Positions 17,164 through 32,721 of a DNA stretch of 64,000 nt are shown here, one piece after another. The DNA comes from a candidate division WOR-3 bacterium (lineage in GTDB: Bacteria > Hydrothermota > Tepidihabitantia > Tepidihabitantales > Tepidihabitantaceae): contig CBFGIT010000012.1 in the NCBI GenBank assembly GCA_965648905.1, forward strand, positions 31,209 to 95,208, read 5' to 3'. Below the pieces are notes generated by a model that was not told the DNA's origin, made no database searches, and saw only the letters and a list, made by a program, of their open reading frames with translations. Both the position numbers and the translations under genes were made by a program. The number at the start of each line of letters is the position of its first letter. The stretch's first letter is position 1.

Positions 17164-17956
17164 CGCCAGGCTGCTCTCTGGCCCTGCCTTCGAGCCGGGC
17201 CAGGTTGTCCTTGACCACCCGTGCCGATCTCGGGTCAGCCACCGTGTCGACAAGTGACAAGGCCAGCCGGAATGACTCCAAGGCATGCGTCGAGTCCTTC
17301 AGCACCTGATAGGCAACGCCCAGGTTGTTAGCGAGCAGTGATGACCAGTTTGGCCCGGTGGCCGCCGTACCCGGTTGCGGGAGGGAGTTCAGTGCCTTCT
17401 GGTAGTAAGGGACGCAACTATCGGCGAATCCATGGCTCTGAAACAAGAAGCCGATGCTGAACGCCAGCCATGGGCTCAGCTCGCTGGCACCTGTCACGGC
17501 CGCATCAAAGCCCAGACGGAACTCGCGCAGAGCCCAGTCCGGACTCGCAGCCTGGTTGTAGCAGTATCCGGCGAAACCGTGCAGGGCCGCTGCCTCAGCG
17601 GGCTGGGCGTTCTTGATTAGTCGCCTGGTCTGGGTAACAGCGTCGTGCCAGCGACCTTGAGCGGCGAGCGTCTCAGCGGTTGTGAGCCTGAGTTTGATCT
17701 CGGCCGGGAAGAGTGCAAGCGTGGCTGAGTCGAGCGAGACGTCGCCGAGTAGCCGCGTAACTGCCGCCAGGTCGGTCTCGGTGCGGGACAGCACCGGGAC
17801 CGGACCGGGCTCCGCAGGAGGGCGGCAGAGAGAGCGTGACAGTACGAGCAGTACGCCTACGGCCACCAGTCCGAGCACGCCCCACTGAACGTACGAACTG
17901 GGAATGCGGAACTTCTTCTTTGGTCGTTCCTTGCGAATGCTTCGGTAGCTTGGCAC
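17117..17956 (-). CDS. Membrane-anchored TPR protein
   Basis: Basic N-terminus, one TM, TPR-like helices (NNLGVAY); has its own promoter. Confidence 0.7.
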   Translation of the reverse strand: MPSYRSIRKERPKKKFRIPSSYVQWGVLGLVAVGVLLVLSRSLCRPPAEPGPVPVLSRTETDLAAVTRLLGDVSLDSATLALFPAEIKLRLTTAETLAAQGRWHDAVTQTRRLIKNAQPAEAAALHGFAGYCYNQAASPDWALREFRLGFDAAVTGASELSPWLAFSIGFLFQSHGFADSCVPYYQKALNSLPQPGTAATGPNWSSLLANNLGVAYQVLKDSTHALESFRLALSLVDTVADPRSARVVKDNLARLEGRAREQPGVRPEAGRMGQHQSSR

Positions 17957-18110: not shown

Positions 18111-18138
18111 TTGACATCTGGAGAGTGGTCGCTATTCT
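18111..18138 (+). promoter_or_regulatory. sigma70-like promoter for the hydrogenase operon
   Basis: TTGACA-N16-TATTCT, 8 nt before GTG 18147. Confidence 0.6.
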
Positions 18139-18146
18139 TCCTGCGC

Positions 18147-19178
18147 GTGAGCAGATTCACTCTGCCCATAAAGGCGAGAGACCAGTGGCTCGGCAAGCTG
18201 CTGGAGCGGTTCGCGGTCTTCGTCCCTGTGGTCAGTAAGGACCGCGTGCATTGGCATCGCCTGGTGCCAACTGACCTCGGCAAGGCCGAGGATTGTCTGA
18301 CACCGGCTCTTGTCCGCATCCGAGCGGCAGAGCCGGTGAAGTCTTTTCTGTTCCAGCCGCGTCAGTACGTTGCGTCGATGCCAGCCAGTGAGATGCCGGT
18401 TGGTGACAAGCCGCGTCTGCTTATCGGGGCGAAGAGTTGTGACCTGGTACCGCTCAAGGTGCACGACCGGATACTGGGTGAAGGTCAGTTCGCCGACCCG
18501 TTCTACAGCGCCGAGCGTCGCCGGACTATGATTATCGCGGCAGACTGCCCAACACCTGAGGATTCCTGTTTCTGCAATCTGCTCGGTGGGCAACCGTATG
18601 CCCAGGATGGCGTGGATGTGACCCTTGCCGTCGTCGATGGCTGTTATCTGCTGGAGAGCCAGACGCCCGAGGGCGAAGAATTGTTGAATGTCGACTCGTC
18701 CCTGATGCAACCTGCAACTGAAGCACAAATGACAACCAGGACCGATTCCCGCAAGGCCGCAGTTGAGACGCTGGGCCGGCTGAATCCCAAGCCACTGAAT
18801 CCCGACCTGCCCAGAGCTGTGGCTGACCGGCTTGGTGATGAGCAGTTCTGGACCAGGCATGCTGCAGGCTGCGTAGAGTGCTATGGTTGTCTGATGGGGT
18901 GCCCTACCTGTTATTGCTTTCTCCTGTATGACAAGGCAAAGGAAGTCGGGTTGGAGCGGACCCGGGTCTGGGACGCGTGTTACGAGGCTGCCTATGCCCG
19001 AGTCGGCGGCGGTGCGAACCCGCGCGCCGAATTCCTCAAGCGGTTCGCCAACCGGTTCGATTGCAAGTTTAGCCAGTTCAAGAACGACCACGGGTTCTAC
19101 GCCTGTTCTGGTTGCGGCCGTTGTTTCCGGGCCTGCATGGGCAAGATTGACATCAGAAAGGTGCTGGCCGAGTTGTGA
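18147..19178 (+). CDS. AsrA / sulfhydrogenase beta (HydB)-like 4Fe-4S subunit
   Basis: DSCFC, CVECYGCLMGCPTCYC, RVWDAC, CSGCGRCFRAC. Start inferred at GTG 18147. Confidence 0.85.
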   Translation: MSRFTLPIKARDQWLGKLLERFAVFVPVVSKDRVHWHRLVPTDLGKAEDCLTPALVRIRAAEPVKSFLFQPRQYVASMPASEMPVGDKPRLLIGAKSCDLVPLKVHDRILGEGQFADPFYSAERRRTMIIAADCPTPEDSCFCNLLGGQPYAQDGVDVTLAVVDGCYLLESQTPEGEELLNVDSSLMQPATEAQMTTRTDSRKAAVETLGRLNPKPLNPDLPRAVADRLGDEQFWTRHAAGCVECYGCLMGCPTCYCFLLYDKAKEVGLERTRVWDACYEAAYARVGGGANPRAEFLKRFANRFDCKFSQFKNDHGFYACSGCGRCFRACMGKIDIRKVLAEL

Positions 19179-19990
19179 GCAACCCGTACCAGCCGATTCC
19201 GGCCCGGATTCTCGAGACCCATGACGAGACTTCGAACATCAGAACGTTCAAGCTCAAGCCCGAGCAGGAGATACCGTTTCTCGCCGGCCAGTTCGTCGAG
19301 CTGACCGTGCCCGGATTCGGCGAGGCCCCGTTTACGCCCTCTTCCTCGCATTTCGAGCGCGAGACGTTTGACATGACGATCATGAAGGTCGGTCGCGCTA
19401 CCAGTGCATTGTTTGGTCTGAAACCCGGAGACACGGTCGGTGTGCGTGGGCCATATGGGCAGCGCTACCCGTTGGAGAAGTTCGAAGGCAAGGACATCTA
19501 CATTGTCGGCGGCGGCGTAGGGCTTGCTCCGCTGCGGGCGCTGTTTCTCGCGCTGGTCCATGAGATTGGCAAGTACCAGCGCATCTTCCTGCGCTATGGC
19601 GCACGTACTCCTCAGGACATTGTCTACAAGCACCTGCTGCCCGAGTGGCAGAAGATTCCCAAAGTCGACATTGACCTGTCGGTCGACGTCAGTGACGAGA
19701 AGTGGATGAAGAAGGTCGGTGTCGTTACCTGCTTGATGGACGAGATACCATGTGACGAGAAGACGAGCATCGCGGTCGTTTGCGGTCCGCCCATCATGAT
19801 GAAGTTTGTGAACCAGAAGCTGCTCGATGCCGGGTTCCAGCCTGAGAACATCTACTTGTCGATGGAGACCAACATGTCCTGTGGCGTGGGTCAGTGTCGG
19901 CATTGCCGGCTTGGGCCGTACTTGACCTGCAAAGACGGGCCGGTCTTGACCTGGGCACAGATAAAGGACATCGAGGAGCCATTCATCTGA
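19175..19990 (+). CDS. AsrB / sulfhydrogenase gamma (HydG)-like FAD/NAD(P)-binding [2Fe-2S] subunit
   Basis: GQFVEL, GEAPF, RGPYG, GGGVGLAPLR, CGPPIMM, MSCGVGQCRHC...CKDGPV. Confidence 0.9.
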   Translation: MSNPYQPIPARILETHDETSNIRTFKLKPEQEIPFLAGQFVELTVPGFGEAPFTPSSSHFERETFDMTIMKVGRATSALFGLKPGDTVGVRGPYGQRYPLEKFEGKDIYIVGGGVGLAPLRALFLALVHEIGKYQRIFLRYGARTPQDIVYKHLLPEWQKIPKVDIDLSVDVSDEKWMKKVGVVTCLMDEIPCDEKTSIAVVCGPPIMMKFVNQKLLDAGFQPENIYLSMETNMSCGVGQCRHCRLGPYLTCKDGPVLTWAQIKDIEEPFI

Positions 19991-21627
19991 TGCAGGCCAC
20001 GCGTACTACCTGCCCGTTCTGCCTTAACGGCTGTACCGCGGGCGTGGACTGGAACGGCGTCGAACACAAGATGCACTATTTCCCCGACGCCGAGGTCAAT
20101 CGGGGCAGGCTTTGTCCTCGCGGCAACAGTGCCAACATCGTTATTGACCACCGCGAGCGATTGTGTCGGCCACAGTTTGACGGGCGGGATATCACCTGGC
20201 CTGAAGCTGAGGCACTGGTACGTAGCTGGCTTTCGCAGACCAAGCCTGAGGACCTGGCAATCGTCTACAGCCGGGCACGTTCAGTGGGCGAGGTCCGCCG
20301 CATGCACGGCTTGGCGCGGGAGCTGGGTACGCCCAACCTTGTCTGCGGTCACATTGAGCCGGAGAACAGCTTCAACCACCGGCTCGAAGGTGTCGCCGAT
20401 GCCACCCTGGCCCAGGTCGAGGCCAGTCGCGCCATGCTGCTCGTTGGAGACGTGTTCAGCACCTCGCCGGTTGCGAGCTGGCGCATTCTCGACGCGCGCT
20501 ATGCTGACCGCAAGAACCGCCTGGTGGTTATCGACTCTATCCGGACGCGGCAGGCTGGGTTTGCTCACATGTTCGTCCAGGTCAAGCCGGGCACCGAGCC
20601 TCTTGCGCTCGTGGCACTGGCGGCTTTGATTGACCCGAAGGGATTGCCGGGTGTTGACGCGGACCGGTTGGCGAGTGTGGCGGGCACAAGCCGCGATGCA
20701 CTCGGCGCGGCCGCGGCGATGCTCAAACCCGAAGTCCCCGGATTCGTCGGTAGCGCGATGCACCCGGGCAGGGCTTTTCATCCGACGCTGCACAGTCTTG
20801 CAAGTCAGTTGGTTGCCAGAGCCGCGAACAAGCCTTTTATCGGTTTCCGCGAAACCGGTCTGCCGCCTGGGCCGATGCGGTTTGCTGAACTGCGCAAGGC
20901 AATGAGCGAAGGCAGGATCAGGATGCTCTTCTGGACCGGCGGTCTGTTCCCCTATAGCTACTCTGAGTTGCTTCCGGAATTGAGCAAGGTCGAGCATCTT
21001 GTTGCGACGTCGATATTCAGGCCGGACCCGCCGGTGCCGGGTCTAGTCCTGCCCTTGACCGCAGAGCTTGAGCGGGCGTCGGTCGGCAGTTCCTACTGGG
21101 GGCCGGTCGAGCGCTCAGCCCTGGCCTCGCCGCTGAGCGGAACCCGGGAGTTCGGCCAGGTGCTTGACTGGTTCGGCAGAGCGGCGGAGGCGGACGAGAT
21201 TCCAGCTAAGCCGGCATCGGTGAGCGAAGTCGTTGTGCTGGCGCAGAAGGCAGCGGGCTTCTTTCGTGATAATGCTGAATGGTTGCTCGTCGGTGAGAAG
21301 AAAGCCATTGGCCTGCGCGGGTTTCATGACCCGGAAGACACCGTGCTCGTCAACCGGTCCGACGCGGCCAGACTGCATGCCAATGACGCCAGTTTTGTGA
21401 AGGTCAAGAGCCTGAGTGCAGAAGTCGAGTTTCGGGTCCACGTGACCGACGCGGTGCCAGCCGGTGTGCTGGCGGTCGGCGTAAATGTGCACCGTAACCG
21501 CGCCTTGTTCCCACTGGCAGTTGATGAGCTCACCGGCGATGTTACGGTTACGCCGGTTTCGGTGTCGGTTGAGAAGACAGCCCGGGTTCCCACGGCTGGG
21601 AGCGAGAATCTCTCGGTGTGGTCGTGA
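19990..21627 (+). CDS. Molybdopterin-oxidoreductase-fold (NuoG/FdhF-like) subunit, probably without Mo/W cofactor
   Basis: N-terminal CPFCLNGC...NRGRLCPRG Fe4S4 motif; C-terminal molybdopterin-dinucleotide-binding-like domain; only 545 aa. Confidence 0.75.
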   Translation: MQATRTTCPFCLNGCTAGVDWNGVEHKMHYFPDAEVNRGRLCPRGNSANIVIDHRERLCRPQFDGRDITWPEAEALVRSWLSQTKPEDLAIVYSRARSVGEVRRMHGLARELGTPNLVCGHIEPENSFNHRLEGVADATLAQVEASRAMLLVGDVFSTSPVASWRILDARYADRKNRLVVIDSIRTRQAGFAHMFVQVKPGTEPLALVALAALIDPKGLPGVDADRLASVAGTSRDALGAAAAMLKPEVPGFVGSAMHPGRAFHPTLHSLASQLVARAANKPFIGFRETGLPPGPMRFAELRKAMSEGRIRMLFWTGGLFPYSYSELLPELSKVEHLVATSIFRPDPPVPGLVLPLTAELERASVGSSYWGPVERSALASPLSGTREFGQVLDWFGRAAEADEIPAKPASVSEVVVLAQKAAGFFRDNAEWLLVGEKKAIGLRGFHDPEDTVLVNRSDAARLHANDASFVKVKSLSAEVEFRVHVTDAVPAGVLAVGVNVHRNRALFPLAVDELTGDVTVTPVSVSVEKTARVPTAGSENLSVWS

Positions 21628-22088
21628 AGCGCATTGTTCTTCGGCTGGACTACTGTATCGGCTGCCGGTCGTGCGAGGCGGCCTGCCGAAGCCGGTTCAA
21701 GGGCGAGGCGAGGATCGGCGTTGCCGAATTGAATTCCACAACCCTGCTCGCCCAGGGCTGCCGCCATTGCGACGAACCGCTGTGTGCGGCGGCGTGTCCG
21801 TTCCAGGTGATTGTCCGTAACCCGGAGACCGGGATTGTACGCAAATCCGACTTCCATTGCGTCGGCTGCCGGTCGTGCACGCTCGCCTGTCCGTTCGGAG
21901 TTATTGAGCCCGGACTTGTGCGTCACATGTCCCAGAAGTGCACCTTGTGCAGCGACCGCCCTGAAGGGCCGCGCTGCGTCACCTCGTGTCCGACCGGTGC
22001 CCTGCAGTTCGTCGAGGAGCCTGAAAAGCCGGAGAAACGAACCGGAGCCCGCTACTTGTCACGCCATGCCCACTGGAGGAGAACATGA
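21618..22088 (+). CDS. HycB/HydN-like 4x[4Fe-4S] electron-transfer subunit
   Basis: CIGCRSCEAAC, CRHCDEPLCAAACP, CVGCRSCTLACP, KCTLC...CVTSCP. Confidence 0.9.
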   Translation: MVVKRIVLRLDYCIGCRSCEAACRSRFKGEARIGVAELNSTTLLAQGCRHCDEPLCAAACPFQVIVRNPETGIVRKSDFHCVGCRSCTLACPFGVIEPGLVRHMSQKCTLCSDRPEGPRCVTSCPTGALQFVEEPEKPEKRTGARYLSRHAHWRRT

Positions 22089-23014
22089 TTGGCTGGACCG
22101 GGTGGAAGCTCGCATTCGCTTTCCTTGTGTTCCCGGGCTTTCTGTTCAGCGCCGTGGTCGGCATGGTGCTGACCTGGGTTGACCGGTTTGTGTCGGCTCG
22201 GGTCCAGTGGCGCAAAGGGCCGCCGTTCTATCAGCCGTTCGCGGACTTTCTGAAGCTGATGCTCAAGCAGACTGTCGTGCCTGACGGGGCAGCCCGGACC
22301 ACTTTCCTGCTCGCACCGCTGCTCGGCCTGGTGGCGATGTGCCTGACCGCAGTGATGCTGTTCTACGCCAACTTCTTCCCGTACATATCTTTTGCCGGCG
22401 ACCTGATTGTGCTGGTGTACCTGTTCGCGCTGCCGCCGCTGGCGCTGATACTCGGGGCGTCGGCATCGCGGAACCCTCTGTCTGCGGTCGGGGCTTCGCG
22501 TGAGATGACGCTCTACCTCGGATACGAACTACCGTTTCTCTTGGCGCTTGCCGTGCCGGTCATCAGGAGCCATGGAGCGTTTCGCATCGGTGACCTCGTG
22601 CTCGCTCAGCAGGCTTCGGGGCCTTTCCTTAATTCGATATCCGGCGTTATCGCCGCCGTCATCGTCCTGATTTGCATTCAGGCCAAACTTGGGTATCCTC
22701 CGTTCGACATTGCTGAAGCTGAACAGGAAATCATGTCCGGAGTACTGATTGAATACTCGGGCGCGCCGCTGGCCGCGTTCCGGCTGGCGCGGGCGATGAT
22801 GCTTCTACTGCTGCCCTTGTTTCTTGTTACTCTCTTCTGGGGCGGGTTGGTGAGCTGGTGGGCGGTTCTTAAGTTTCTACTCGTTGTCGTCTTGGTTGTG
22901 CTCATCAAGAACACCAATCCGAGGCTCAAGATTGACCACGCGCTGCGGTTCTTCTGGTTGATACTCGCGCCGCTGGGCGTGGCGGCGGTGGTTCTGGCGT
23001 TCGCAGGACTATGA
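22085..23014 (+). CDS. Membrane anchor subunit (NuoH/HycD/MbhM family)
   Basis: ARVQWRKGPP.YQPFADFLKL, GASRE, PFDIAEAEQEI..G..IEYSG, PRLKID. Confidence 0.92.
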   Translation: MIGWTGWKLAFAFLVFPGFLFSAVVGMVLTWVDRFVSARVQWRKGPPFYQPFADFLKLMLKQTVVPDGAARTTFLLAPLLGLVAMCLTAVMLFYANFFPYISFAGDLIVLVYLFALPPLALILGASASRNPLSAVGASREMTLYLGYELPFLLALAVPVIRSHGAFRIGDLVLAQQASGPFLNSISGVIAAVIVLICIQAKLGYPPFDIAEAEQEIMSGVLIEYSGAPLAAFRLARAMMLLLLPLFLVTLFWGGLVSWWAVLKFLLVVVLVVLIKNTNPRLKIDHALRFFWLILAPLGVAAVVLAFAGL

Positions 23015-23427
23015 AAGACGCGCGCATCTGGGGTCTGAAGAAGTCGCCGTGGGTGTATCACCTGGCCGCAGCACCGTGTAACAACTGCGACATCGAGATA
23101 CTGGAGCTTCTGACCCCGCGCTACGACGTCGAGCGGTTTGGAGTTGTACTCGTGGGCTCGCCGCGTCATGCCGATGCGCTGCTCGTGACCGGTGTGCTGA
23201 ATCGCAAGTCCCTGCCTCGGGTGCTCGAAGTCTACGAGCAGACACCGAAGCCCTGTCTCGTGATCGGCATCGGTACGTGCGCCTGCGGCAAGCAGATTTT
23301 CCGCAATTCCTACAATGTCGTTGGTCCATATGACAAGTACATGCCGGTGCACGCGTACATCCCGGGCTGTCCGCCCAAGCCTGAAGCAATGCTGCTCGGG
23401 GTTGTGAAGGCGTTGAGTAAGCTATGA
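23011..23427 (+). CDS. Group 4 [NiFe]-hydrogenase small subunit (MbhJ/HycG/NuoB family)
   Basis: CNNCDIE, RYDVERFG, SPRHAD, GTCA, PGCPPKPEA. Confidence 0.93.
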   Translation: MKDARIWGLKKSPWVYHLAAAPCNNCDIEILELLTPRYDVERFGVVLVGSPRHADALLVTGVLNRKSLPRVLEVYEQTPKPCLVIGIGTCACGKQIFRNSYNVVGPYDKYMPVHAYIPGCPPKPEAMLLGVVKALSKL

Positions 23428-23876
23428 GAGAAGCCGAAGCCAAGCTGAAGCAGCTCGTACCAGTGGCCGACGTGTACGAGCACAATCCGCGGCGGCTGTA
23501 CATTAGGATACCGCGCGAGCGGCTGACCGAAGCAGCCAAGTTGCTGCACCGGGAGTTTGGCATGCGGCTCTCGATCTGCACCGGCATCGACACCCGCGAC
23601 GGGTTCGAGGTGCTGTATCACTTTTCGGACGACAAGGCCGGGACGATGTACACGCTTAAGGTTCTGGCGCCGAAAGATGACCCGCGGATTGAATCGCAGG
23701 CGACCTGGTTTCCGGCCGCAGATTGGATTGAGCGTGAGATGCACGAGCTCCTCGGCATCGAATTCCCGGGACACCCCAATCTGATACCTCTGCTAACATC
23801 CGACGCCGACTGGGAAGGCGGCAAGTACCCGCTGCGACGGGATTACGAGCGCAGGAACGAGGCTCATGAGCGATAG
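23424..23876 (+). CDS. NuoC/MbhK-like subunit
   Basis: EVLYHF, ADWIEREMHELLGIEFPGHPN, YPLRRD. Confidence 0.9.
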   Translation: MREAEAKLKQLVPVADVYEHNPRRLYIRIPRERLTEAAKLLHREFGMRLSICTGIDTRDGFEVLYHFSDDKAGTMYTLKVLAPKDDPRIESQATWFPAADWIEREMHELLGIEFPGHPNLIPLLTSDADWEGGKYPLRRDYERRNEAHER

Positions 23877-25044
23877 GCGCATCGTCCCGATCGGTCCGTA
23901 TCACCCGCTACAGGAGGAACCGGAGTTTTTCAAGCTGATTGTCGAGGGCGAGAAGGTCGTGGACCTGGAGATAAACCTTGGCTACAATCATCGGGGGCAT
24001 GAGTTCATCTCGCCTGAGCTGACCTACGACCAGATCCCGTTCCTGGTCGAGCGGATCTGCGGCATTTGCTCAAACTCCCATCCGCTTGCCTGCGTGCTGG
24101 CGGTCGAGGATTGTGCCGGCATCAAACCGCCACCCCGGGCCGACTACATTCGTTCGATTGTGCATGAGCTGGAGCGGATTCACTCGCACCTGCTCTGGGT
24201 CGGGCTGGCCGGCCACTTCATCGGCTACAACACGGTCTGGATGTGGGCATGGCGGTACCGCGAACACATTCTTGAGGTGTTCGAGATGATTACCGGCAAC
24301 AGGAACCACTACGCGGCGAACAAGCCGGGCGGCGTCAGGCGCGATATCAAGCCCGAGCAGGTTCCGCAGATACTTGCGGCATTGGACTTGGCCGAAAAGA
24401 AGACGATGATGCTGACCAAAGCGGTACTCGACGACCCGGTCATCCGCTCGCGCCTTGAGGGTGTGGGGGTGTTGACCCGTGAGCAGGCGATTGCCTATTC
24501 GGTTACCGGGCCGACGGCTCGTCCGTCGGGCGTCGACATCGACGTGCGGCGCGACGACCCGCACGCCGCCTATGACAAGGTGCCATGGAACGTCATCGTG
24601 CTGACCGAGGGTGACGTGTTCGCCAAGGCCAAGGCGCGGCTTCTGGAGATATTCGAGTCGGTCAAGATCATCAGGGCCTGTCTTAAGGACATGCCGGACG
24701 GGCCAATTGAGACGAGGATTGACGAAGTGCCGCCGGGCGAGGGCATCGGTCGCACTGAAGCGCCAAGGGGTGAGGTGTTCCACTACATTCGATCTGACGG
24801 GACGAACCGGCCCCTGCGACACAAGGTGCGGGCACCAAGCTACATGAACATCGCCTCGAATGTGGTTGCTGTGCGAGGCGGCTCGATTGCCGACGCGGCC
24901 CTGACTCTGGCCGCAGTCGATCCGTGCTACTGCTGCACCGAGCGCATGGCCGCCTTTGAGAATGGACGGCTGAAGTACTCGGGCAAGGACCTACTTCGGC
25001 TGTCGTGGCAGAGAACCGAGTCCCTGAAAGGCAGGTTCAAGTGA
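23866..25044 (+). CDS. Group 4 [NiFe]-hydrogenase large subunit (MbhL/HycE family)
   Basis: PIGPYHP, L1 ERICGICS, ELERIHSH, EAPRGE, L2 DPCYCCTER followed by a C-terminal extension. Confidence 0.95.
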   Translation: MSDRRIVPIGPYHPLQEEPEFFKLIVEGEKVVDLEINLGYNHRGHEFISPELTYDQIPFLVERICGICSNSHPLACVLAVEDCAGIKPPPRADYIRSIVHELERIHSHLLWVGLAGHFIGYNTVWMWAWRYREHILEVFEMITGNRNHYAANKPGGVRRDIKPEQVPQILAALDLAEKKTMMLTKAVLDDPVIRSRLEGVGVLTREQAIAYSVTGPTARPSGVDIDVRRDDPHAAYDKVPWNVIVLTEGDVFAKAKARLLEIFESVKIIRACLKDMPDGPIETRIDEVPPGEGIGRTEAPRGEVFHYIRSDGTNRPLRHKVRAPSYMNIASNVVAVRGGSIADAALTLAAVDPCYCCTERMAAFENGRLKYSGKDLLRLSWQRTESLKGRFK

Positions 25045-26276
25045 GTTTCGGGGGCTGGTTCGAGTTCACCGGTGGGGCAATCCATGGCTATGTCGCAGCC
25101 GTGTTCTGCCTGGTTGGCGCGGCTGCGCTGCTGTATTCCCTGGTACGGCTGCGTGGTCGAGGTGCCGGGCTGGTTGAGTACACCGTCTTCTTGCTCCTGC
25201 TTGTTGTGAGTGCGCTCGGCGTGGTCTACGCGCAGAACCTGGTTGTGGTCTTTGCCCTGTGGGAGATTGCTACCTTCGCGCTTTGGCGTCTGGTCGCCTT
25301 TTTCCGGTCCGACGACGACGTGAACGCCGGTGCCTGGGCCTGGTACGTTAACTTCGGCGCCGCGGCAATGATGCTCGTGGGGCTGGCGCTGATTCTCGTC
25401 GAGAACGGCAGCCTGAACTTCGGCGCGCTGCGTGGTCAGGAAATCACCTGGGCACCGGCCGTGCTCATCTTCATCGGCATTCTCGCTAAGTCCGCCACTC
25501 TGCCGTTGCATGTCTGGCTGCCCAGAGCGTACCGGGCTGCGCCGGCGCCGGTGTGTGCTTTGCTCTCCGGCGTTGCCGAGAACCTTGGTGTCGTGCTGTT
25601 TCTGAAGCTGTTTGTTGCCGCCATGATTCCACCCGTTGGGTTCATGGAAATGGTCGCGGTGCTGGCACTGGTCTCGAGCCTTATGGCCGGCGGCTTGGCG
25701 CTTCAGTCCGGTTCGCTGCGATCAGTGCTTGCTTACTCAACAATCGGGCAGCTTGGATTCATATTCCTGGGGCTGGCGCTGACCGGCTACTACGGCCTGC
25801 TTGGTGCACTCACCTACCTTGCAGCCCATGCGGTCGCCAAGTCGGGACTCTTCTTCGCCGTGGGCGCGGTTGAAGACGCGACCGGGAAAGTGGAGCTTCA
25901 GGATCTTGGCGGGATGTACCGTAGGGCCCCGGTCCTGGCCGGAGCCACGGGGATGCTGGTGCTTTCGATTGTCGGGCTGCCACCCTTCCTGGGTTTCTTT
26001 GCCAAGCTCGGGGTACTGATTGCCGCGGTCCGGCACAGCCTGGTGCTCGGCCTTGTGGCGGTAGCCGCGGCGCTGTTCACCGTGCTCTACCTGGCGCGGT
26101 TCTATTCTCGCGTCTTCCTCGGCTCGGCGCCCGAACACGAGCTGCAGCCGGTCGGTCTGACTCCCACCGCCATCGCGGTTGTAATGGCGGCGGTCTCGCT
26201 GGCAGCGGGCATTTTCTACTACTTGTCGGTTGGCGTTCTTGAGAAGGGTGTGACTTCTCTCGCCGGGGTAATCTGA
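25041..26276 (+). CDS. Antiporter-like membrane subunit (NuoL/M/N-MrpA/D family), short form
   Basis: LWEIAT, AKSATLPLHVWLP.AY..APAPV.ALLSG, LAYSTIGQLG, AHAVAKSGLF, PPFLGFFAK. Start GTG overlaps the upstream stop. Confidence 0.88.
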   Translation: MSFGGWFEFTGGAIHGYVAAVFCLVGAAALLYSLVRLRGRGAGLVEYTVFLLLLVVSALGVVYAQNLVVVFALWEIATFALWRLVAFFRSDDDVNAGAWAWYVNFGAAAMMLVGLALILVENGSLNFGALRGQEITWAPAVLIFIGILAKSATLPLHVWLPRAYRAAPAPVCALLSGVAENLGVVLFLKLFVAAMIPPVGFMEMVAVLALVSSLMAGGLALQSGSLRSVLAYSTIGQLGFIFLGLALTGYYGLLGALTYLAAHAVAKSGLFFAVGAVEDATGKVELQDLGGMYRRAPVLAGATGMLVLSIVGLPPFLGFFAKLGVLIAAVRHSLVLGLVAVAAALFTVLYLARFYSRVFLGSAPEHELQPVGLTPTAIAVVMAAVSLAAGIFYYLSVGVLEKGVTSLAGVI

Positions 26277-28177
26277 TGCATCCCTTTCTGCTGATCATAC
26301 TCATTCCGGTTGCCGCGGGGCTGCTCGGATATCTCGCCGGCCGTTTGCGCAATGAGTTCAGCTTCATCGGTGCGGTCATCACGCTCTACTACGCGGTGCG
26401 GCTGTTCTTCCAGTCACGCCACAGCGTGCTGATGCTTGAACCCGCGGCCACGGCCGGGATACCGATTGCCTTCCGGCTCGACGCGCTCTCGGGGTTCCTG
26501 TTGCTGTTCATTGCGGTTTTTGCCGTCCTGGTGATGGTGTTCTCCTTCCGCTACATGAAGGGCCGTGACGGTCTGCGCGGCTACTATCTGTACATGCTCT
26601 TGGCCCTGGCATGCGCGAACGGCGTGGTCCTGGCTGCGAACCTGGTCGTGTTGTTGTTCTTCTGGGGTGCGATGCTCGCGGTTGTCTACGGGCTGCTCCT
26701 TGTCGGCCGGCAGGGTTCGGAGGCGGTCGCCACCAAGGCTCTGGTGTTGGTCGGCCTGTCGGATTTCCTAATGCTTGCCGGCATTGCCTTGCTGGTGCGA
26801 AGCAACTGGATCGATCTTGTGCCGGCCGTGCCCATGGCTTTGCACCAGCCGATGAATGTTGCCGCGTTCCTGCTCATTGTGGCTGGCGCTCTTGCCAAGG
26901 CCGGCTCGATGCCGTTCCACTCCTGGATTCCGGCAGCAGCAGAAACTGCTCCGGCCACGGTAATGGCCTATGTCCCGGCCTCGCTCGACAAGCTGCTTGG
27001 TATCTACCTGCTGACGCGACTGGCGACCTACATGTTCGACATCGGAGGCAACATCGCGGTCAAGAACAGTTTGATGGCGATCGGGTCGGTCACGATTCTC
27101 GGCGCGGTGATGATGGCCTTGGTGCAGAAGCGGGTGATGAAGCTGCTTTCGTTTCACGCCGTCTCGCAGGTCGGCTACATGGTTCTGGGAATTGGGACCG
27201 GCATTCCGGTCGGGATTGCCGGGGGGCTGTTTCACATGCTGAACCACGCCATTTACAAGGCCGGCCTCTTCTTGTCTGCGGGTTCGGTGGAGCACTGGGC
27301 CAGGACCGATGAGATTGACAGGCTCGGTGGCGTGGCTGGCCAGATGCCCGTCACTTTCCTATCCTTCCTGGTGTGCGCCATGGCCATCTCAGGGGTACCG
27401 CCGCTCAATGGATTTGCCTCAAAATGGATGGTGTATCAGGGAGTGATTGGAGCCGGACGCGACGGCAATGGGCTGGCCGTAGTTTTTCTGGTCTGCGCCA
27501 TGCTTGGCAGCGTGCTGACCCTGGCTTCCTTCCTAAAATTGCTGCACTCGATGTTTTTCGGCCAGCGGCCCGACGGGCTGGCCAAGGTTCGCGAGGTCGG
27601 GTTCGCCATGTGGCTGCCGCCGGCGGTGCTGGCGGCATTGTGCGTTGTGTTCGGAATTGGTGCCTGGCAGTTGCCCCTGCGTGGGTTCATCTATCCGAGC
27701 CTGCCGATGTTGATTGAAGTGCCGGGAGTCTGGCAGCCGCTGCTCGTCACTCTGCTGATGCTCGTGGCGCTGGCGCTGGGCGTGATTGTGTACCTGCTGG
27801 GCACGGGCACGAAGCCGGTGGCAGCTCGGACGTTCGTTGGCGGAGAGAGGATTGCCGACAACGAAGAGAGTCGCGTGACCGGCACGGCATTCTATTCACC
27901 GGTCAAGCACCTGCCGATTCTGGACGACCTGCTCAGGTTCGGTGGCTCCGGTTCTTTCGACCTGTACAACTGGCTGGTCGGTGCCGCACACGGTCTGGCC
28001 GCGGTGTTCCAGGGCCTGGTTGAAGACGTGCTGCAGTTGCTTTACCGCGCACTTGGTCTGCTTACTGCGGCAGCCGGGCGGTTGCTCTCCAGTCTGTCAA
28101 CCGGCAGCCTGCCCCTCTACGTCGCCTGGGTTTTCATTGGCGGAATGGTGTTCTTTCTGGTGTTGATGCTGAGGTAG
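26276..28177 (+). CDS. Antiporter-like membrane subunit (HyfB/NuoL-like)
   Basis: KAGSMPFHSWIP, DKLLG, FHAVSQVGY, NHAIYK, PPLNGFASKW. Confidence 0.88.
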   Translation: MHPFLLIILIPVAAGLLGYLAGRLRNEFSFIGAVITLYYAVRLFFQSRHSVLMLEPAATAGIPIAFRLDALSGFLLLFIAVFAVLVMVFSFRYMKGRDGLRGYYLYMLLALACANGVVLAANLVVLLFFWGAMLAVVYGLLLVGRQGSEAVATKALVLVGLSDFLMLAGIALLVRSNWIDLVPAVPMALHQPMNVAAFLLIVAGALAKAGSMPFHSWIPAAAETAPATVMAYVPASLDKLLGIYLLTRLATYMFDIGGNIAVKNSLMAIGSVTILGAVMMALVQKRVMKLLSFHAVSQVGYMVLGIGTGIPVGIAGGLFHMLNHAIYKAGLFLSAGSVEHWARTDEIDRLGGVAGQMPVTFLSFLVCAMAISGVPPLNGFASKWMVYQGVIGAGRDGNGLAVVFLVCAMLGSVLTLASFLKLLHSMFFGQRPDGLAKVREVGFAMWLPPAVLAALCVVFGIGAWQLPLRGFIYPSLPMLIEVPGVWQPLLVTLLMLVALALGVIVYLLGTGTKPVAARTFVGGERIADNEESRVTGTAFYSPVKHLPILDDLLRFGGSGSFDLYNWLVGAAHGLAAVFQGLVEDVLQLLYRALGLLTAAAGRLLSSLSTGSLPLYVAWVFIGGMVFFLVLMLR

Positions 28178-28180
28178 TGA

Positions 28181-28729
28181 ATGACTGAGTCTTACGTCCT
28201 GCTGGCCGCGATGCTTGCCGCCGCCATTGTGGCAATCGAGATCAATGACCTGCTGGCTGCGGCCGTGGCACTGGGCATCGTCGGGTTCAGCGTGGCGATC
28301 ATGTTCATCCTGCTGCAGGCTCCGGACCTGGCAATCGTCCAGATTGCGGTTGAGGTGCTTACCGTGGTTTTCTTTGCCGCGGTCATTCTGCGGACGACCA
28401 ACATTGATACGACAATTGCTGAGCCTTTCAAGCGCGAGCTTGTGCTACCGACCGTCGTTTTCGCCGCGTTTGGGACATTTCTGCTCGTGCTGGCCGGTAT
28501 GGTGCTGCGTGAGTTGCCGCCACTTGGCAGTCCGACCATGATGGTGGCAAGTCAGTACATTCTACACGGTCTGGAGCGCACCGGAGCGGCAAATGTCGTT
28601 GCTGCGATTATCCTGGACTTCCGTGGTTACGATACCCTCGGTGAGGCGACCGTGCTCTTCACTGCCGTTGTCGGCGTGCTGACCGTCATGAGGCGTTCGG
28701 GTCGGAAGTCGGCAGGAGAGGGAGCATAG
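28181..28729 (+). CDS. DUF4040 + MbhE (MrpA C-terminal part) subunit
   Basis: LQAPDLAIVQIAVE, NVVAAIILDFRGYDTLGE. Confidence 0.88.
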   Translation: MTESYVLLAAMLAAAIVAIEINDLLAAAVALGIVGFSVAIMFILLQAPDLAIVQIAVEVLTVVFFAAVILRTTNIDTTIAEPFKRELVLPTVVFAAFGTFLLVLAGMVLRELPPLGSPTMMVASQYILHGLERTGAANVVAAIILDFRGYDTLGEATVLFTAVVGVLTVMRRSGRKSAGEGA

Positions 28730-28731
28730 CG

Positions 28732-29172
28732 ATGCGTGGCATGTCGACGATTGTCCAGGTAGTTGCCCACCTGCTTGCCGGCCTGCTGTTTCTGTATGGT
28801 GTCTACATCGTTCTCCACGGCCACCTCACGCCGGGCGGCGGTTTTGCCGGTGGTGTGCTGATTGCCGCGGCTTTCATACTTATGTCGCTGGCCTTTGGTT
28901 CGGTCGAGCAAGCCGAGAAGAGCTCCTACACATTCTCCTCGATCTTCGAGAGCCTGGGCGGGGTAGCATTTGTCGTTCTGGCCCTGACCGGGCTGATTGC
29001 CTGCGGCTATTTCTTCAAGAATGAGCTCGTATACTACACCGGGGTACCATTGCATCTGGTTTCCGGTGGTATCATCCTGCCAGCCAATGTCGCTATCGGC
29101 ATCAAGGTCGGGGCCGGACTGGTGGCGATATTCCTGGCCCTCGGCGCATCCCGGTTCGTGATGAAGGACTAG
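28732..29172 (+). CDS. mnhB: Mrp antiporter subunit B (MbhF-like)
   Basis: HGHLTPGGGFAGG, IGIKV. Confidence 0.9.
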   Translation: MRGMSTIVQVVAHLLAGLLFLYGVYIVLHGHLTPGGGFAGGVLIAAAFILMSLAFGSVEQAEKSSYTFSSIFESLGGVAFVVLALTGLIACGYFFKNELVYYTGVPLHLVSGGIILPANVAIGIKVGAGLVAIFLALGASRFVMKD

Positions 29173-29174
29173 GC

Positions 29175-29513
29175 ATGATAGCACTGATGGCCTGCGTTCT
29201 GCTTCTGCTCATCGGTCTGTACGCGGTCGTGGCCAAGCGTAACCTCATTAGGATCATCATCGGCTTCAGCCTGATTGAGTATGCCGTCAACCTGCTGTTT
29301 GCGTTGATTGGGTTCAAGAAGGGAGCACTGCCGCCGATTATCACGGACCTGACCCAGACGCGAAACTTCGTCGACCCGGTACCTCAGGCGCTGGTGCTGA
29401 CTGCCATTGTCATCGGCCTGTCGACGACCGCATTGATGCTCGCCTTGGCGATGCGTGTCTATGAGAAGTACAGGACATTCGACATCACCGAAATCCGGAG
29501 GCTCAAAGGCTGA
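29175..29513 (+). CDS. mnhC: Mrp antiporter subunit C (MbhG-like)
   Basis: NLIRIIIG, DPVPQALVLTAIVIG. Confidence 0.92.
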   Translation: MIALMACVLLLLIGLYAVVAKRNLIRIIIGFSLIEYAVNLLFALIGFKKGALPPIITDLTQTRNFVDPVPQALVLTAIVIGLSTTALMLALAMRVYEKYRTFDITEIRRLKG

Positions 29514-31018
29514 TGAACTCACGCCTGTTACCGCTGTTCGTCGTTACGCCGATGCTGGCCGCGTTCCTCACGCCACTGCTTTCGAAGGTCTGGTCGAGAT
29601 TCGGGGACCTGCTGGCCAATCTTGCCGGGGCGGTACTGCTCGGCCTCTCAACCATGGGCGTAGCCACGCTGCTTGGCAGCTCACAGCCACTGATTCATCG
29701 CGTGGGAGGCTGGTTGCCGGCAGTCGGCATAACGCTGGTCTACGACCCACTGACCGCGCTTGTGGCACTTGCCCTGAATGCAGTCGGGTTTGCTGCCCTG
29801 CTCTACTCGGTTCGTTACCTCGACCACTATACCGGCCGCTGGAAGTTCTACACGCTGTTCATGCTGATCCTTGCTGGTCTGAACGGCGTGGTTATGACCG
29901 GCGACATGTTCAACCTGTTTGTGTTCATGGAAGTCGCGGCGGTGGCGTCGTATGCTCTGGTTGCGTTCGGGACTGACTTTGACGAACTCGAGGCCGGGTT
30001 CAAGTACATGGTCATCGGCGAGGTCGGCGGCTTCTCGATACTGCTGGCCATCGCGCTGCTCTATGCCAAGGTTTCGAGCCTGAACATGGCGGTCGTGTCC
30101 CAGGTGCTGGTAGCGCAGGGACAATCGCCTTTGTTCTGGTTCATTGTCGTCCTGTTCCTTATCGGGTTCGCGGTGAAGATGGCGATGGTGCCGTTCCATG
30201 CTTGGCTGCCCGATGCCCACCCTTCTGCTCCGGCGCCGGTGTCAGCCGTACTCTCGGGCGTGTTCATCAAGGTACTGGGGGTGTATGCGATGTCGCGCCT
30301 GATGTTCAACGTTTTCGGGCTCTCTCGTGCCAGCTCGCCCGAGTTTTTCAACCTGCTGCTCGGGTTCGGCCTGCTCTCGATTACTGTTGGCGGGCTGTTG
30401 GCCTACAACCAGAGAGACTACAAGCGGCTGCTTGCCTATTCGTCCATCAGTCAGATCGGCTACGTCCTCATTGGCTTCGGTATCGGCAACTATTGGGGAA
30501 TTGTCGGGGCGCTATTTCATATTGTTGCTCATGCGCTGGGCAAAGGGGTGCTGTTCCTGGCTGCGGGCGCGGTTGAGCGTCAGACCGGCACGCGCGACCT
30601 GAGCAAGCTCGCCGGCCTGGAAAAGTCGATGCCGGCCACAACCTGGTCTCACATTCTCGGCTCGCTTTCGCTTTCCGGCGTGCCGCCGTTTGCCGGGTTT
30701 TTCTCCAAGCTGTTCATTGTCATTGGCGCAGTCTCGGCCCAAATGCACTGGCTGGCGGTCGTTGCTGCGCTGTTCTCAGTCGTGACGCTCGGGTACCTGA
30801 CCAAAGTCGTGAACCGTTCGTTCTTTGCCCGACCGGGTGCGACTTTGACCCCGGCGCGCGAGGCGCCGGCAACGATGGTGGCGGCGATGCTGCTGCTCGT
30901 CGTCCTGTCCCTGCTATTCGGTCTGGGTTTCAAGCCGACGCTCGACTGGTTCGTCGGTCCGGCAGCACAGGTTCTGACCAACGGGCTTGAGTATGCCCGG
31001 TTTGTACTGGGAGGGTAG
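29513..31018 (+). CDS. mnhD: Mrp antiporter subunit D (MbhH-like)
   Basis: GDMFNLFVFMEV, EAGFKY, KMAMVPFHAWLPDAH, KRLLAYSSISQIGY, GFFSK. Confidence 0.92.
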   Translation: MNSRLLPLFVVTPMLAAFLTPLLSKVWSRFGDLLANLAGAVLLGLSTMGVATLLGSSQPLIHRVGGWLPAVGITLVYDPLTALVALALNAVGFAALLYSVRYLDHYTGRWKFYTLFMLILAGLNGVVMTGDMFNLFVFMEVAAVASYALVAFGTDFDELEAGFKYMVIGEVGGFSILLAIALLYAKVSSLNMAVVSQVLVAQGQSPLFWFIVVLFLIGFAVKMAMVPFHAWLPDAHPSAPAPVSAVLSGVFIKVLGVYAMSRLMFNVFGLSRASSPEFFNLLLGFGLLSITVGGLLAYNQRDYKRLLAYSSISQIGYVLIGFGIGNYWGIVGALFHIVAHALGKGVLFLAAGAVERQTGTRDLSKLAGLEKSMPATTWSHILGSLSLSGVPPFAGFFSKLFIVIGAVSAQMHWLAVVAALFSVVTLGYLTKVVNRSFFARPGATLTPAREAPATMVAAMLLLVVLSLLFGLGFKPTLDWFVGPAAQVLTNGLEYARFVLGG

Positions 31019-31507
31019 GTGGCGCGGCGTCTGGCGTACTTCCTGCTTGGTCTGGTGTTCTACATAGTGCTGGTATGGTCATTCCAGGTTGAGGAATTGA
31101 TTGCTGCCGGCGCGGCAGCACTGCTCACTGCGTTGGTGTTTGGCAAACACCTGCCGATTGAGCCGGCCCGACTGCTTTCTCCCCGGCGTTGGCTCTGGCT
31201 GCTGATGTACGTCCCGGTCTTCGCGTATCAGTGCCTGAAGTCGAACATCGACGTCGCGCTGCGCGTGCTTTCGCCCGGTCTGCAAATCAAGCCCGGAATC
31301 GTTCGAATACGCACAACACTCAAGAGCGACGTGGCGCGGGTGTTTCTGGCGAACTCGATTACGTTGACGCCCGGAACGATGACAGTGGAGATACGGGACG
31401 ACCTGCTCTACATCCACTGGATCGAGGTCGGCTCGGACGACCCGGTTGCTGCGGCAAAGAGGATCATCGGGCCGTTTGAGTTCTTCCTGTCGAGGATATT
31501 CGACTGA
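31019..31507 (+). CDS. mnhE: Mrp antiporter subunit E (MbhA-like)
   Basis: SNIDVA, IKPGIV, LANSITLTPGT, LYIHWI. Confidence 0.92.
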   Translation: MARRLAYFLLGLVFYIVLVWSFQVEELIAAGAAALLTALVFGKHLPIEPARLLSPRRWLWLLMYVPVFAYQCLKSNIDVALRVLSPGLQIKPGIVRIRTTLKSDVARVFLANSITLTPGTMTVEIRDDLLYIHWIEVGSDDPVAAAKRIIGPFEFFLSRIFD

Positions 31508-31761
31508 TGACGATACTGATTGTCTTTCTTTCCTTCGGAGCGTTTTTCTGTCTGTACCGGGCACTCAAGGGGCCTTCGATACCGGACCGTGCGATTGCTG
31601 TCGACATCATGTCGGTCATTTTCACCAGCATCACAGCGCTGATGGCGCTGCAGTACAAGCTCGCGTTTCTCATCGACCTGTCGATCGCGCTGGCAATAAT
31701 CTCTTTCATCGGCAGTCTGGCGCTGGCCAAGTATCTTGAAGGAAGGAGCCTAGATGATTAG
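31507..31761 (+). CDS. mnhF: Mrp antiporter subunit F (MbhB-like)
   Basis: GPSIPDRAIAVD, FIGSLALAKYLE. Confidence 0.9.
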   Translation: MTILIVFLSFGAFFCLYRALKGPSIPDRAIAVDIMSVIFTSITALMALQYKLAFLIDLSIALAIISFIGSLALAKYLEGRSLDD

Positions 31762-32107
31762 CGTTGTCGGCTGGCTGTTCCTTGGTACTGGTGTCGGATT
31801 TACCCTGCTCGGCTGCCTGGGACTGGTTCGGTTCCCGGACCTTTACAACCGCATGCAGGCCGCGACGAAGTGCGTCACTCTCGGCACATGTGGCATCCTT
31901 TTCGGCGTCTTTCTGATGTCCGGATTCACCGCGCTCGGCGTCAAGGCGCTGGTCTGCGCGCTGTTCGTGCTCATTACCGTGCCGGTGGCAGCCCATGCCT
32001 TGGCGCGCGGCTCACTCATTTTCGGCGTCAGGCTCTGGAAAGACACGGTCAAGGACGAGTTCACCGACGACCGGGGTGGTGAGTCGATCATTGAGGGGAG
32101 AAAATGA
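31754..32107 (+). CDS. mnhG: Mrp antiporter subunit G (MbhC-like)
   Basis: GLVRFPDLYNRMQAATK..TLG, PVAAHALAR. Confidence 0.92.
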   Translation: MISVVGWLFLGTGVGFTLLGCLGLVRFPDLYNRMQAATKCVTLGTCGILFGVFLMSGFTALGVKALVCALFVLITVPVAAHALARGSLIFGVRLWKDTVKDEFTDDRGGESIIEGRK

Positions 32108-32721
32108 GAATACCCCTGCCTAAGCTGCGTGAGCTGGTTGAAGCGGTCCGGGCAGTGGTCAAGGGGCCGTACACGACCAGGTTCCCGGCCAGGGTTGACT
32201 CGGTTCACCCCAACTTCCGTGGTCTGCTCAAGTTCGATTCCGACAAATGTATCTGCTGCGGTGCCTGCACCCGGGTCTGTCCGCCCCGTGCCCGCGAAAT
32301 CGTATTCGACCGGGACAAAGGCGTCATTCGCAACGTTCACCACGCGGAGCGGTGCATCTACTGCGGTCAGTGCGTGCTCTACTGCACAACTCGTGAGGGC
32401 ATCTACCACTCGACCGAGTTCGACGCGGCCCGGACCGAACGCAGTCCGGACTGGGAGACATCGGTCGAGAAGGAAGCCGCAATCTGCGAAATCTGTGGTG
32501 AGGCATTTGCTTCCAAGGCGCACCTGCTTTGGATTGCGCACAGGGTCGGCGACCTTGCCAATTCAAACCCGACGTTGTTTCTCTCGTTGTACCAGGAACT
32601 CGGCACTGCTGAGCCGCGTCCGCCGCGCGGCGACCCGGTTCCTTATCGGTCAGATACCGTGCGTATCCTGTGTCCTGAATGTCGACGCAAGACGTACCTG
32701 ACCGAGCAGTGGGGCTACTGA
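32104..32721 (+). CDS. 2x[4Fe-4S] subunit (NuoI/MbhN/HycF-like) with extra CxxC pairs
   Basis: PYTTRFP..FRG, CICCGACTRVCP, CIYCGQCVLYC, plus CEIC and CPEC. Confidence 0.88.
   Translation: MRIPLPKLRELVEAVRAVVKGPYTTRFPARVDSVHPNFRGLLKFDSDKCICCGACTRVCPPRAREIVFDRDKGVIRNVHHAERCIYCGQCVLYCTTREGIYHSTEFDAARTERSPDWETSVEKEAAICEICGEAFASKAHLLWIAHRVGDLANSNPTLFLSLYQELGTAEPRPPRGDPVPYRSDTVRILCPECRRKTYLTEQWGY

Follow-up and report, generated by a model that had tools for sequence, protein, structure and literature searches.

Does the hydrogenase cluster at positions 18,147-32,721 of a 64,000-nucleotide stretch of WOR-3 DNA (positions 31,209 to 95,208 of contig CBFGIT010000012.1, assembly GCA_965648905.1; hereafter the window) encode a membrane machine in which an NAD-linked input module is wired to a group 4 [NiFe] hydrogenase with an Mrp-type antiporter arm, and which way would electrons and ions run through it? 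The cluster comprises 18 open reading frames (ORFs), all on the + strand, with intergenic gaps of -40 to +3 nt according to the ORF check of the window. An earlier note on this DNA had labelled the genes as AsrA/AsrB-like, NuoG/Fdh-fold and HycB-like proteins, followed by a hydrogenase core; each label is backed by Pfam, NCBIfam and PDB matches. The cluster is almost certainly an intact WOR-3 member of the Hun family in an 18-gene form. All 16 Hun subunits are present, in an order shared by 42 of 47 complete non-WOR-3 loci, and AsrC is absent among the 18 genes in family searches, as in Hun. The architecture is not new, having been published from genome surveys as Hun. The novelty that the note implied does not hold: the gene arrangement is in print under that name and has also been described as a group 4 cluster called 'enigmatic', and for the sister group 4b clusters a link to NAD(P) has been published. 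The discovery value is therefore low.

In the text of Glass et al. (bioRxiv 10.1101/536078) the Hun complex has 16 subunits, HunA-P, in four modules (AsrAB plus ferredoxin, hydrogenase, proton module and Na+ module). HunG is assigned there to group 4g, with CGIC and CYCC motifs (reference RXG63129), some genomes carry a molybdopterin-domain gene between hunB and hunC, and HunABC is read as a ferredoxin input. The letters HunH-HunP are assigned here from that text.

The putative NAD head consists of the first two gene products. HunA (18,147-19,178) is an AsrA/SHI-beta-like Fe-S protein (PF17179), whose sole sequence relative in the PDB is SHI-beta of soluble hydrogenase I (9nez_B, E 2e-31). HunB (19,175-19,990) is, by family and motif matches, an AsrB/SHI-gamma/PyrK-like FAD, NAD(H) and [2Fe-2S] protein. 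It carries the features of an FNR-type NAD(H) diaphorase (PyrK/AsrB/FlxA), namely GxGxxP, CGP, the [2Fe-2S] cysteines and an acidic residue at the ribose site. Among 119 aligned rows, G112 is kept in 113, G114 in 115, and C203-G204-P205 together with the four [2Fe-2S] cysteines in 118. Position 171, an Asp of NAD type in our sequence, is Asp in 116 rows, Glu in two and a gap in one; at the matching place PyrK, which uses NAD, has Asp, and SHI-gamma, which uses NADPH, has Thr-Arg. We take it as a rule of the FNR family that an acidic residue at this site selects NAD over NADP. By its sequence HunB seems to use NAD(H) rather than NADP(H). The NAD(P)-linked head proposed earlier is kept in this narrower form: the NAD-binding domain is intact and the NADP(H) part is dropped. 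The acidic residue in 118 of 119 rows argues against the ferredoxin-only reading in the text of Glass et al.

The route from this head to the nickel site would pass through HunC (21,618-22,088), a HycB-like ferredoxin with 16 Cys for four clusters, and HunP (32,104-32,721), identified by family matches and motif as a NuoI/HycF-like 2[4Fe-4S] protein with an extra Cys quartet. A three-chain model of HunC, HunP and HunA scores 0.93, against 0.24 for the best of three controls, that in which HunP was replaced; at least 93% of contacts recur between runs, and the partner pLDDT is 89 or higher. Of 157 solved pairs 116 attain the score mark, as do 2 of 215 mismatched ones; these counts apply only roughly to a three-chain job with its own alignments. 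The model contains these three chains without HunB, the Fdh-fold protein or cofactor distances. In it, HunA residues 241-251 and 325-333 contact HunC residues 49-55 and 92-93 and HunP residues 143-205. HunA is thus predicted to dock on HunC and HunP, which would supply the interface between input module and hydrogenase on which the earlier proposal depended. That the model recalls a solved complex is less likely, though possible, since the sole PDB relative of HunA is SHI-beta and the HunP stretch is longer than that of HycF.

All 118 rows retain the eight Cys of the two middle HunC clusters. The eight Cys of the outer clusters are all there in 49 of 49 rows that have an Fdh-fold gene and in 33 of 69 that lack it. 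These counts were read by eye from the alignment; an alignment-free count is too strict, losing 14 rows and missing spacing variants. They fit a main wire via the middle clusters with a side branch to the Fdh-fold protein. Among the Bacteroidota and Cloacimonadota loci (L073-L127), most Bacteroidales HunC lack most or all of the outer-cluster Cys. Electrons would run from FAD and [2Fe-2S] of HunB over the HunA clusters to the two middle HunC clusters, the two HunP clusters, HunE and finally the NiFe site, and the Fdh-fold subunit, without molybdenum, would sit as scaffold or carrier dock on a side branch via the two outer HunC clusters. That the NiFe site is wired to NAD(H) is, in our judgement, very probable.

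The protein on this side branch (19,990-21,627; 545 amino acids, aa) has an Fdh/NuoG fold and one [4Fe-4S] motif, without a Mo ligand. Its AlphaFold2 model (pLDDT 92) matches formate dehydrogenases and Nap with TM-scores of 0.77-0.78 at 14-16% identity, including Fdh1 of M. extorquens in Foldseek (0.77, 16% identity). Of its four cluster Cys (C8, C11, C15, C42), three are kept in 48 of 48 WOR-3 rows and the fourth in 43, with Asp in the other 5. The selenocysteine (Sec) or Cys followed by His that formate dehydrogenases and formate hydrogenlyase (FHL) require at the Mo site aligns here with Glu123-Pro124. Synthesis of the bis-molybdopterin guanine dinucleotide cofactor, their further hallmark, is likewise not in evidence: the genome (99.6% complete) yields no match to MoaC, MoeA or PF00384, each of which was found in 11 of 14 control genomes, and MoaC occurs in 3 of 131 other genomes of families f1-f14. 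Judged from these residues and genes, the Fdh-fold subunit cannot be a molybdenum enzyme here; the fold assigned earlier stands. The genome has a tRNA-Sec (7,817-7,911 of one contig), though no molybdopterin enzyme was found.

The hydrogenase core consists of HunD (22,085-23,014, PF00146), a NuoH/MbhM-like membrane anchor, the NuoB-like small subunit HunE (23,011-23,427, PF01058), NuoC-like HunF (23,424-23,876, PF00329) and the group 4 [NiFe] large subunit HunG (23,866-25,044), which has a C-terminal tail after Arg360. HunG carries ERICGIC at residues 62-68 and DPCYCC at 352-357, the Ni ligands previously described as intact, and its best PDB match is MbhL (6cfw_L, E 2.5e-80). The four ligands and the Tyr are kept in 58 of 58 WOR-3 rows and the extra Cys in 56; counts of CGIC and CYCC in other phyla are circular, as the scan patterns required these motifs. 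The four Cys of HunE are present in 129 of 129 rows. The hallmarks of group 4 are thus in place: two CxxC Ni-ligand motifs, the small-subunit cluster, the NuoH anchor and the maturation genes HypD and HycI, which were found in the genome (other hyp genes were not searched by family). One WOR-3 locus (L047, genome G145) has an in-frame TAG within hunG in an otherwise intact operon, which may be an assembly error.

The arm combines three antiporter-like subunits with MbhD/E and MnhB, C, E, F and G. An extra antiporter-like subunit (25,005-26,276, PF00361) follows HunG; the overlap of 40 nt stems from its longest start, and an alternative in-frame GTG at 25,041, perhaps the real start, leaves 4 nt. 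It keeps the Glu of transmembrane helix (TM) 5, the Lys of TM7 and the Lys of TM12, and its TM8 site is variable. HunH (26,276-28,177) is a long, MrpA-N/MbsH'-like antiporter-like subunit with Gly131 in place of the TM5 Glu and a conserved Asp238-Lys239. HunL (29,513-31,018), identified as MnhD by family match, has all five axis residues (E140, K222, K253, H340, K399). The remaining subunits are HunI (28,181-28,729, MbhD+E or MrpA C-terminus, PF13244 and PF20501), HunJ (28,732-29,172, MnhB, PF04039), HunK (29,175-29,513, MnhC, family matches), HunM (31,019-31,507, MnhE, PF01899), HunN (31,507-31,761, MnhF, PF04066) and HunO (31,754-32,107, MnhG, PF03334 and TIGR01300). The MnhB-G set reported earlier is therefore complete, and all parts of the Mrp module (MrpA N and C, B, C, D, E, F, G) are present, with an intact MnhD axis and a HunH without the TM5 Glu. 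Judging from its residues, coupling is probably altered in HunH. Three other loci (L038, L039, L040) have an antiporter-like ORF of about 830 aa, probably a HunH-HunI fusion resembling full MrpA, with the small Mrp genes not adjacent.

The association of input module and hydrogenase is conserved. With an E value of 1e-60 or lower, a large-subunit relative occurs in 179 of the 272 genomes of WOR-3; the weaker matches are probably other group 4 or Mbx-type enzymes. Sixty WOR-3 regions, about one per genus, were fetched by hand, of which L062 was dropped as a 45% paralog. A scan across all genomes matched at least 593 stretches; of its 592 loci the best 80, ordered by their similarity to a single query, were added. 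Among these, L068, a duplicate of L058, was dropped from synteny counts and kept in motif and Rex counts. The rows in all synteny counts are kin. Among loci with at least 6 kb upstream, hunA, hunB and hunC precede the large subunit in 49 of 53 WOR-3 and 54 of 54 other loci, so that the first genes are syntenic with the hydrogenase elsewhere, as had been anticipated. The misses are L044 and three split operons (L056, L057 and L067 in genomes G255, G258 and G257), whose genomes have close HunB and HunD genes elsewhere; a membrane-free Hun version in these three was considered and rejected because of that HunD. The Fdh-fold gene is present in 47 of 52 WOR-3 and 2 of 65 other loci. Of the loci that reach hunP, 48 from WOR-3 carry 0, 1, 2 or 3 antiporter-like genes in 3, 7, 9 and 29 cases, and 59 from other phyla carry 1, 2 or 3 in 1, 55 and 3 cases. 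The exact layout, with Fdh-fold gene and three antiporter-like genes, occurs in 29 of 43 complete WOR-3 loci (one, L040, rearranged) and in none of 47 others. Reduced forms with a single antiporter-like subunit are seen in L021-L025, L027, L063 and L146; L021 also lacks adjacent small Mrp subunits, which leaves an FHL-like arm with an NAD head.

The energetics were calculated with assumed potentials of -320 to -280 mV for NADH and -480 mV for ferredoxin, one ion across 150 mV being worth 14.5 kJ. H2 formation from NADH then costs +18 to +26 kJ/mol at 1 bar H2, +7 to +14 at 1 kPa and -5 to +3 at 10 Pa, and that from ferredoxin yields 36-41 kJ/mol at 1-10 Pa. Because H2 formation from NADH takes energy at more than a few Pa, a group 4 hydrogenase wired to NAD has three options: it is driven, it draws on a second donor, or it works in reverse. 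In the first case the HunA-HunB head would pass NADH electrons to the nickel site, making H2, and a net ion influx would pay the uphill cost. Steiner and Sazanov (PMC7419157) propose for Mrp and MBH that each antiporter-like subunit brings one H+ into the cell while one Na+ leaves. An arm of this kind with two or three such subunits would admit one or two net charges for each H2, which covers the cost; with three subunits this comes to about 29 kJ/mol at 150 mV. We give about an even chance to NADH-dependent H2 formation driven by net ion influx via two or three antiporter-like subunits as the working mode, its direction and stoichiometry being what we infer. The wider view of Hun as a complex-I-family machine in reverse, an NADH:H+ oxidoreductase that spends membrane potential without ferredoxin and has its gear ratio set by one, two or three antiporter-like subunits, is put forward tentatively and falls short of an even chance.

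Possible Rex control in relatives bears on the donor. A Rex-like box was defined by at most two mismatches within 250 nt of hunA, using a consensus similar to the Thermotoga maritima operator. Such boxes precede hunA in 27 of 58 non-WOR-3 loci, against 0.2 expected from base-shuffled controls, and in many of the Bacteroidales loci whose HunC lacks outer-cluster Cys (within L073-L127) the box lies about 205 nt upstream. The T. maritima Rex operator has been described, and Rex is released by NADH (PMC8836258, in the part concerned). In WOR-3, 0 of 50 rows have a box at this threshold, and four have one at three mismatches, against 1.0 expected. Rex control in the organism studied was rejected, neither box nor gene having been found.

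Several observations weigh against NADH-dependent H2 formation driven by ion influx. The operon itself lacks a Rex box (best candidate six mismatches) and the genome has no Rex gene match. That HunC loses Cys where the Fdh-fold gene is missing is not borne out by an independent-pairs test (one pair, p = 1); their co-evolution was rejected, 8 against 4 changes on a FastTree phylogeny (without L047, L062, L068, rows shorter than 370 aa and reference sequences) not being significant. The TM5 Glu of HunH is found in 0 of 32 three-subunit WOR-3, 1 of 62 two-subunit other-phyla and 5 of 13 two-subunit WOR-3 rows; since this residue couples neighbouring subunits in Mrp, not all antiporter-like subunits need be coupled, to judge from the alignment. 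Seven loci with one antiporter-like subunit would move zero net charge in this model. The genome also encodes other NADH sinks, namely an A-type [FeFe] hydrogenase with NuoE/F-like partners, Rnf and a Flx-like cluster. Lastly, Yu, Adams and coworkers (PMC8165549, in its treatment of MBH-type arms) let antiporter-like subunits pump outward, in numbers that scale with the energy released; under that model NADH-dependent H2 formation could not power two or three pumps, and only ferredoxin could.

The strongest competing explanation starts from this last point. Hun may be a ferredoxin-fed, outward-pumping MBH-type hydrogenase, as Glass et al. read it in their text, with two or three antiporter-like subunits exploiting the greater energy release available when H2 is scarce. 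The entry point for ferredoxin would be HunC, HunP or the Fdh-fold branch; the NAD head would serve either as a further entry (confurcation) or as an overflow valve. The 36-41 kJ/mol available at 1-10 Pa suffice for two or three ions at 150 mV, which fits a pump number scaling with energy as in PMC8165549, the closest solved large subunit, MbhL, is ferredoxin-fed, and a three-branch wire with bifurcation has been proposed for group 4b clusters in the relevant section of PMC13582414. However, from locus to locus the NAD head varies less than the pumps do, and the Rex-like boxes of relatives point to NADH. Proteins of the HunB family have a single FAD site of FNR type and are not known to bind a bifurcating cofactor. 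A plain wire would therefore leak ferredoxin electrons to NAD+, short-circuiting the Rnf of the same genome. We regard this explanation as doubtful, though it deserves serious weight.

The same NAD-wired enzyme might instead take up H2 and reduce NAD+, which would build an ion gradient where H2 is plentiful or consume one where it is very scarce. This reaction releases 18-26 kJ/mol at 1 bar, and WOR-3 has been called hydrogenotrophic on account of Mvh-Hdr and Rnf in the main text of PMC12542636; against it, the reaction lies within about 10 kJ of equilibrium at 1-10 Pa H2, and in relatives Rex, if it acts there, would let the operon be expressed at high NADH, which makes uptake improbable. Still far less credible is a reading of the first four genes as a separate soluble enzyme, or as an active formate dehydrogenase that would turn the complex into a formate hydrogenlyase. 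The Fdh fold of the third protein, the tRNA-Sec and the 4 of 53 WOR-3 loci without upstream hunAB speak for it. Glu123-Pro124 in place of Sec/Cys-His, the genome without a MoaC, MoeA or PF00384 match, and the rarity of MoaC in families f1-f14 (just 3 of 131 other genomes) speak against an active enzyme; HunA rests on HunP in the model, and genomes G255-G258, which include three of the four hunAB-less loci, keep close HunB and HunD elsewhere.

If H2 formation from NADH by a machine geared in reverse is true, Hun would give fermenters a third route to shed NADH, beside confurcating hydrogenases and Rnf plus hydrogenase, and would be a natural test of proton direction in MBH-type arms. The question bears on how bacteria of sediments and digesters, still uncultured, keep their redox balance, and on the debate about that direction as set out in the passages concerned of PMC8165549 and PMC7419157, which the interface model and the variants with one, two and three subunits make testable. 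Hun as a substitute for Rnf was considered and rejected, as the genome has its own rnfC, D, G, A and B. The genome further encodes a V-ATPase with an NtpK-like K subunit resembling a Na+ ring, MvhAG and NfnAB-like genes. A second AsrA/AsrB pair lies at 6,565-10,174 of L003 (G000 C8), in the order MvhD, FlxC-like, FlxB, FlxA, near the NfnAB-like genes; this cluster is interrupted by a four-helix-bundle-type ORF.

The 18 abutting genes had been placed behind one promoter. The gene run is borne out by the gaps, and the promoter is more equivocal. A sigma-70-type sequence, TTGACA-16-TATTCT, lies at 18,111-18,138 (+), its -10 box ending 8 nt before the GTG start of hunA. The pattern alone is at chance level (6 sites against 3.9 +/- 2.1 in shuffles); in 34 of 49 WOR-3 loci a TTGACA-like box is paired with a -10 box whose end lies 7-14 nt ahead of the hunA start, a count made without shuffle control. 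With the -10 box only 8 nt from the GTG, the mRNA is likely leaderless with a non-ATG start. In WOR-3 loci of family f1 (within L008-L066) the hunA start is often GTG or TTG. The flanks are unrelated to the cluster, with a divergent ORF and priA upstream and a protein with a type IX secretion system tail downstream. The divergent ORF (17,117-17,956, - strand) encodes 279 aa with a membrane anchor and TPR-like helices, and has its own near-consensus promoter at 17,989-17,962, ending a few nt before its start.

In the literature searched, where most subscription journals were outside coverage, no biochemical study of Hun was found, nor a paper joining WOR-3, group 4 hydrogenase and Mrp. The Glass preprint is the sole match in a whole-word search for Hun hydrogenase, antiporter and Atribacteria; PMC11227167 does not mention 'Hun', 'group 4', 'Mrp' and 'antiporter' are all absent from the main text of the WOR-3 survey PMC12542636, and PMC9585477 and PMC7382037 gave nothing further in the passages concerned. 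Group 4g plus Mrp is regarded as ferredoxin-fed in the corresponding part of PMC8542988.

With Hun, as given in the text of Glass et al., the cluster shares AsrA/AsrB-like HunAB, ferredoxin HunC, the core, the Mrp module, CGIC-CYCC and the optional molybdopterin-domain gene between hunB and hunC, and the 16-gene form recurs in the same order among the fetched loci of Omnitrophota, Elusimicrobiota and Bacteroidota, phyla named there; Kosmotoga, a carrier in culture, is named there too. It differs in the third antiporter-like gene, the WOR-3 host and a HunB that looks NAD-binding, against their ferredoxin reading; the three-antiporter form may already appear in their figure or Table S5. The 'enigmatic' group 4 cluster of Saganbacteria RX5A, for which an oxidoreductase module is proposed in the passage on it in PMC6349859, likewise has a hydrogenase, Mrp-like subunits, an unclassifiable molybdopterin-family protein, a cooF-like ferredoxin, asrA and asrB; that passage describes no NAD link, Mo loss or interface. 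The group 4b clusters of PMC13582414 have, in the section concerned, the same input module, with a Mo-ligand-less Fdh and SHI-gamma/beta, and an AlphaFold wire whose three branches end at the NiFe site, SHI-gamma and the Fdh-like protein. They differ in an FHL-like arm with HyfE/HyfC-like subunits and in the NADP(H)-linked bifurcation proposed for them.

Pyrococcus MBH (6CFW) and MBS (6U8Y) also join a group 4 core to an Mrp Na+ module, and the Ni ligands are as in MbhL, but both are ferredoxin-fed, lack a flavoprotein head and have one (MBH) or two (MBS) antiporter-like subunits, MBS not being a hydrogenase. Compared with MBH of group 4d (14 subunits, one antiporter-like, no input module), our cluster has 18 genes, three of them antiporter-like and four for input. 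Pyrococcus soluble hydrogenase I beta/gamma (9NEZ) and FlxAB represent the source family of HunA and HunB; the Pyrococcus enzyme is soluble, and its SHI-gamma has Thr-Arg at the position of Asp171. Escherichia coli formate hydrogenlyase (7Z0S/7Z0T) has the same chain of FdhF-fold protein, HycB, HycF (with Cys quartet), HycG and HycE, whereas here the Mo ligand is missing from the Fdh and the Mrp set is complete. Between the Cys pairs there are 58 residues in HunP against 34 in HycF, as described in the portion on that subunit of bioRxiv 2022.03.21.484881, and this HunP stretch is the predicted dock of HunA.

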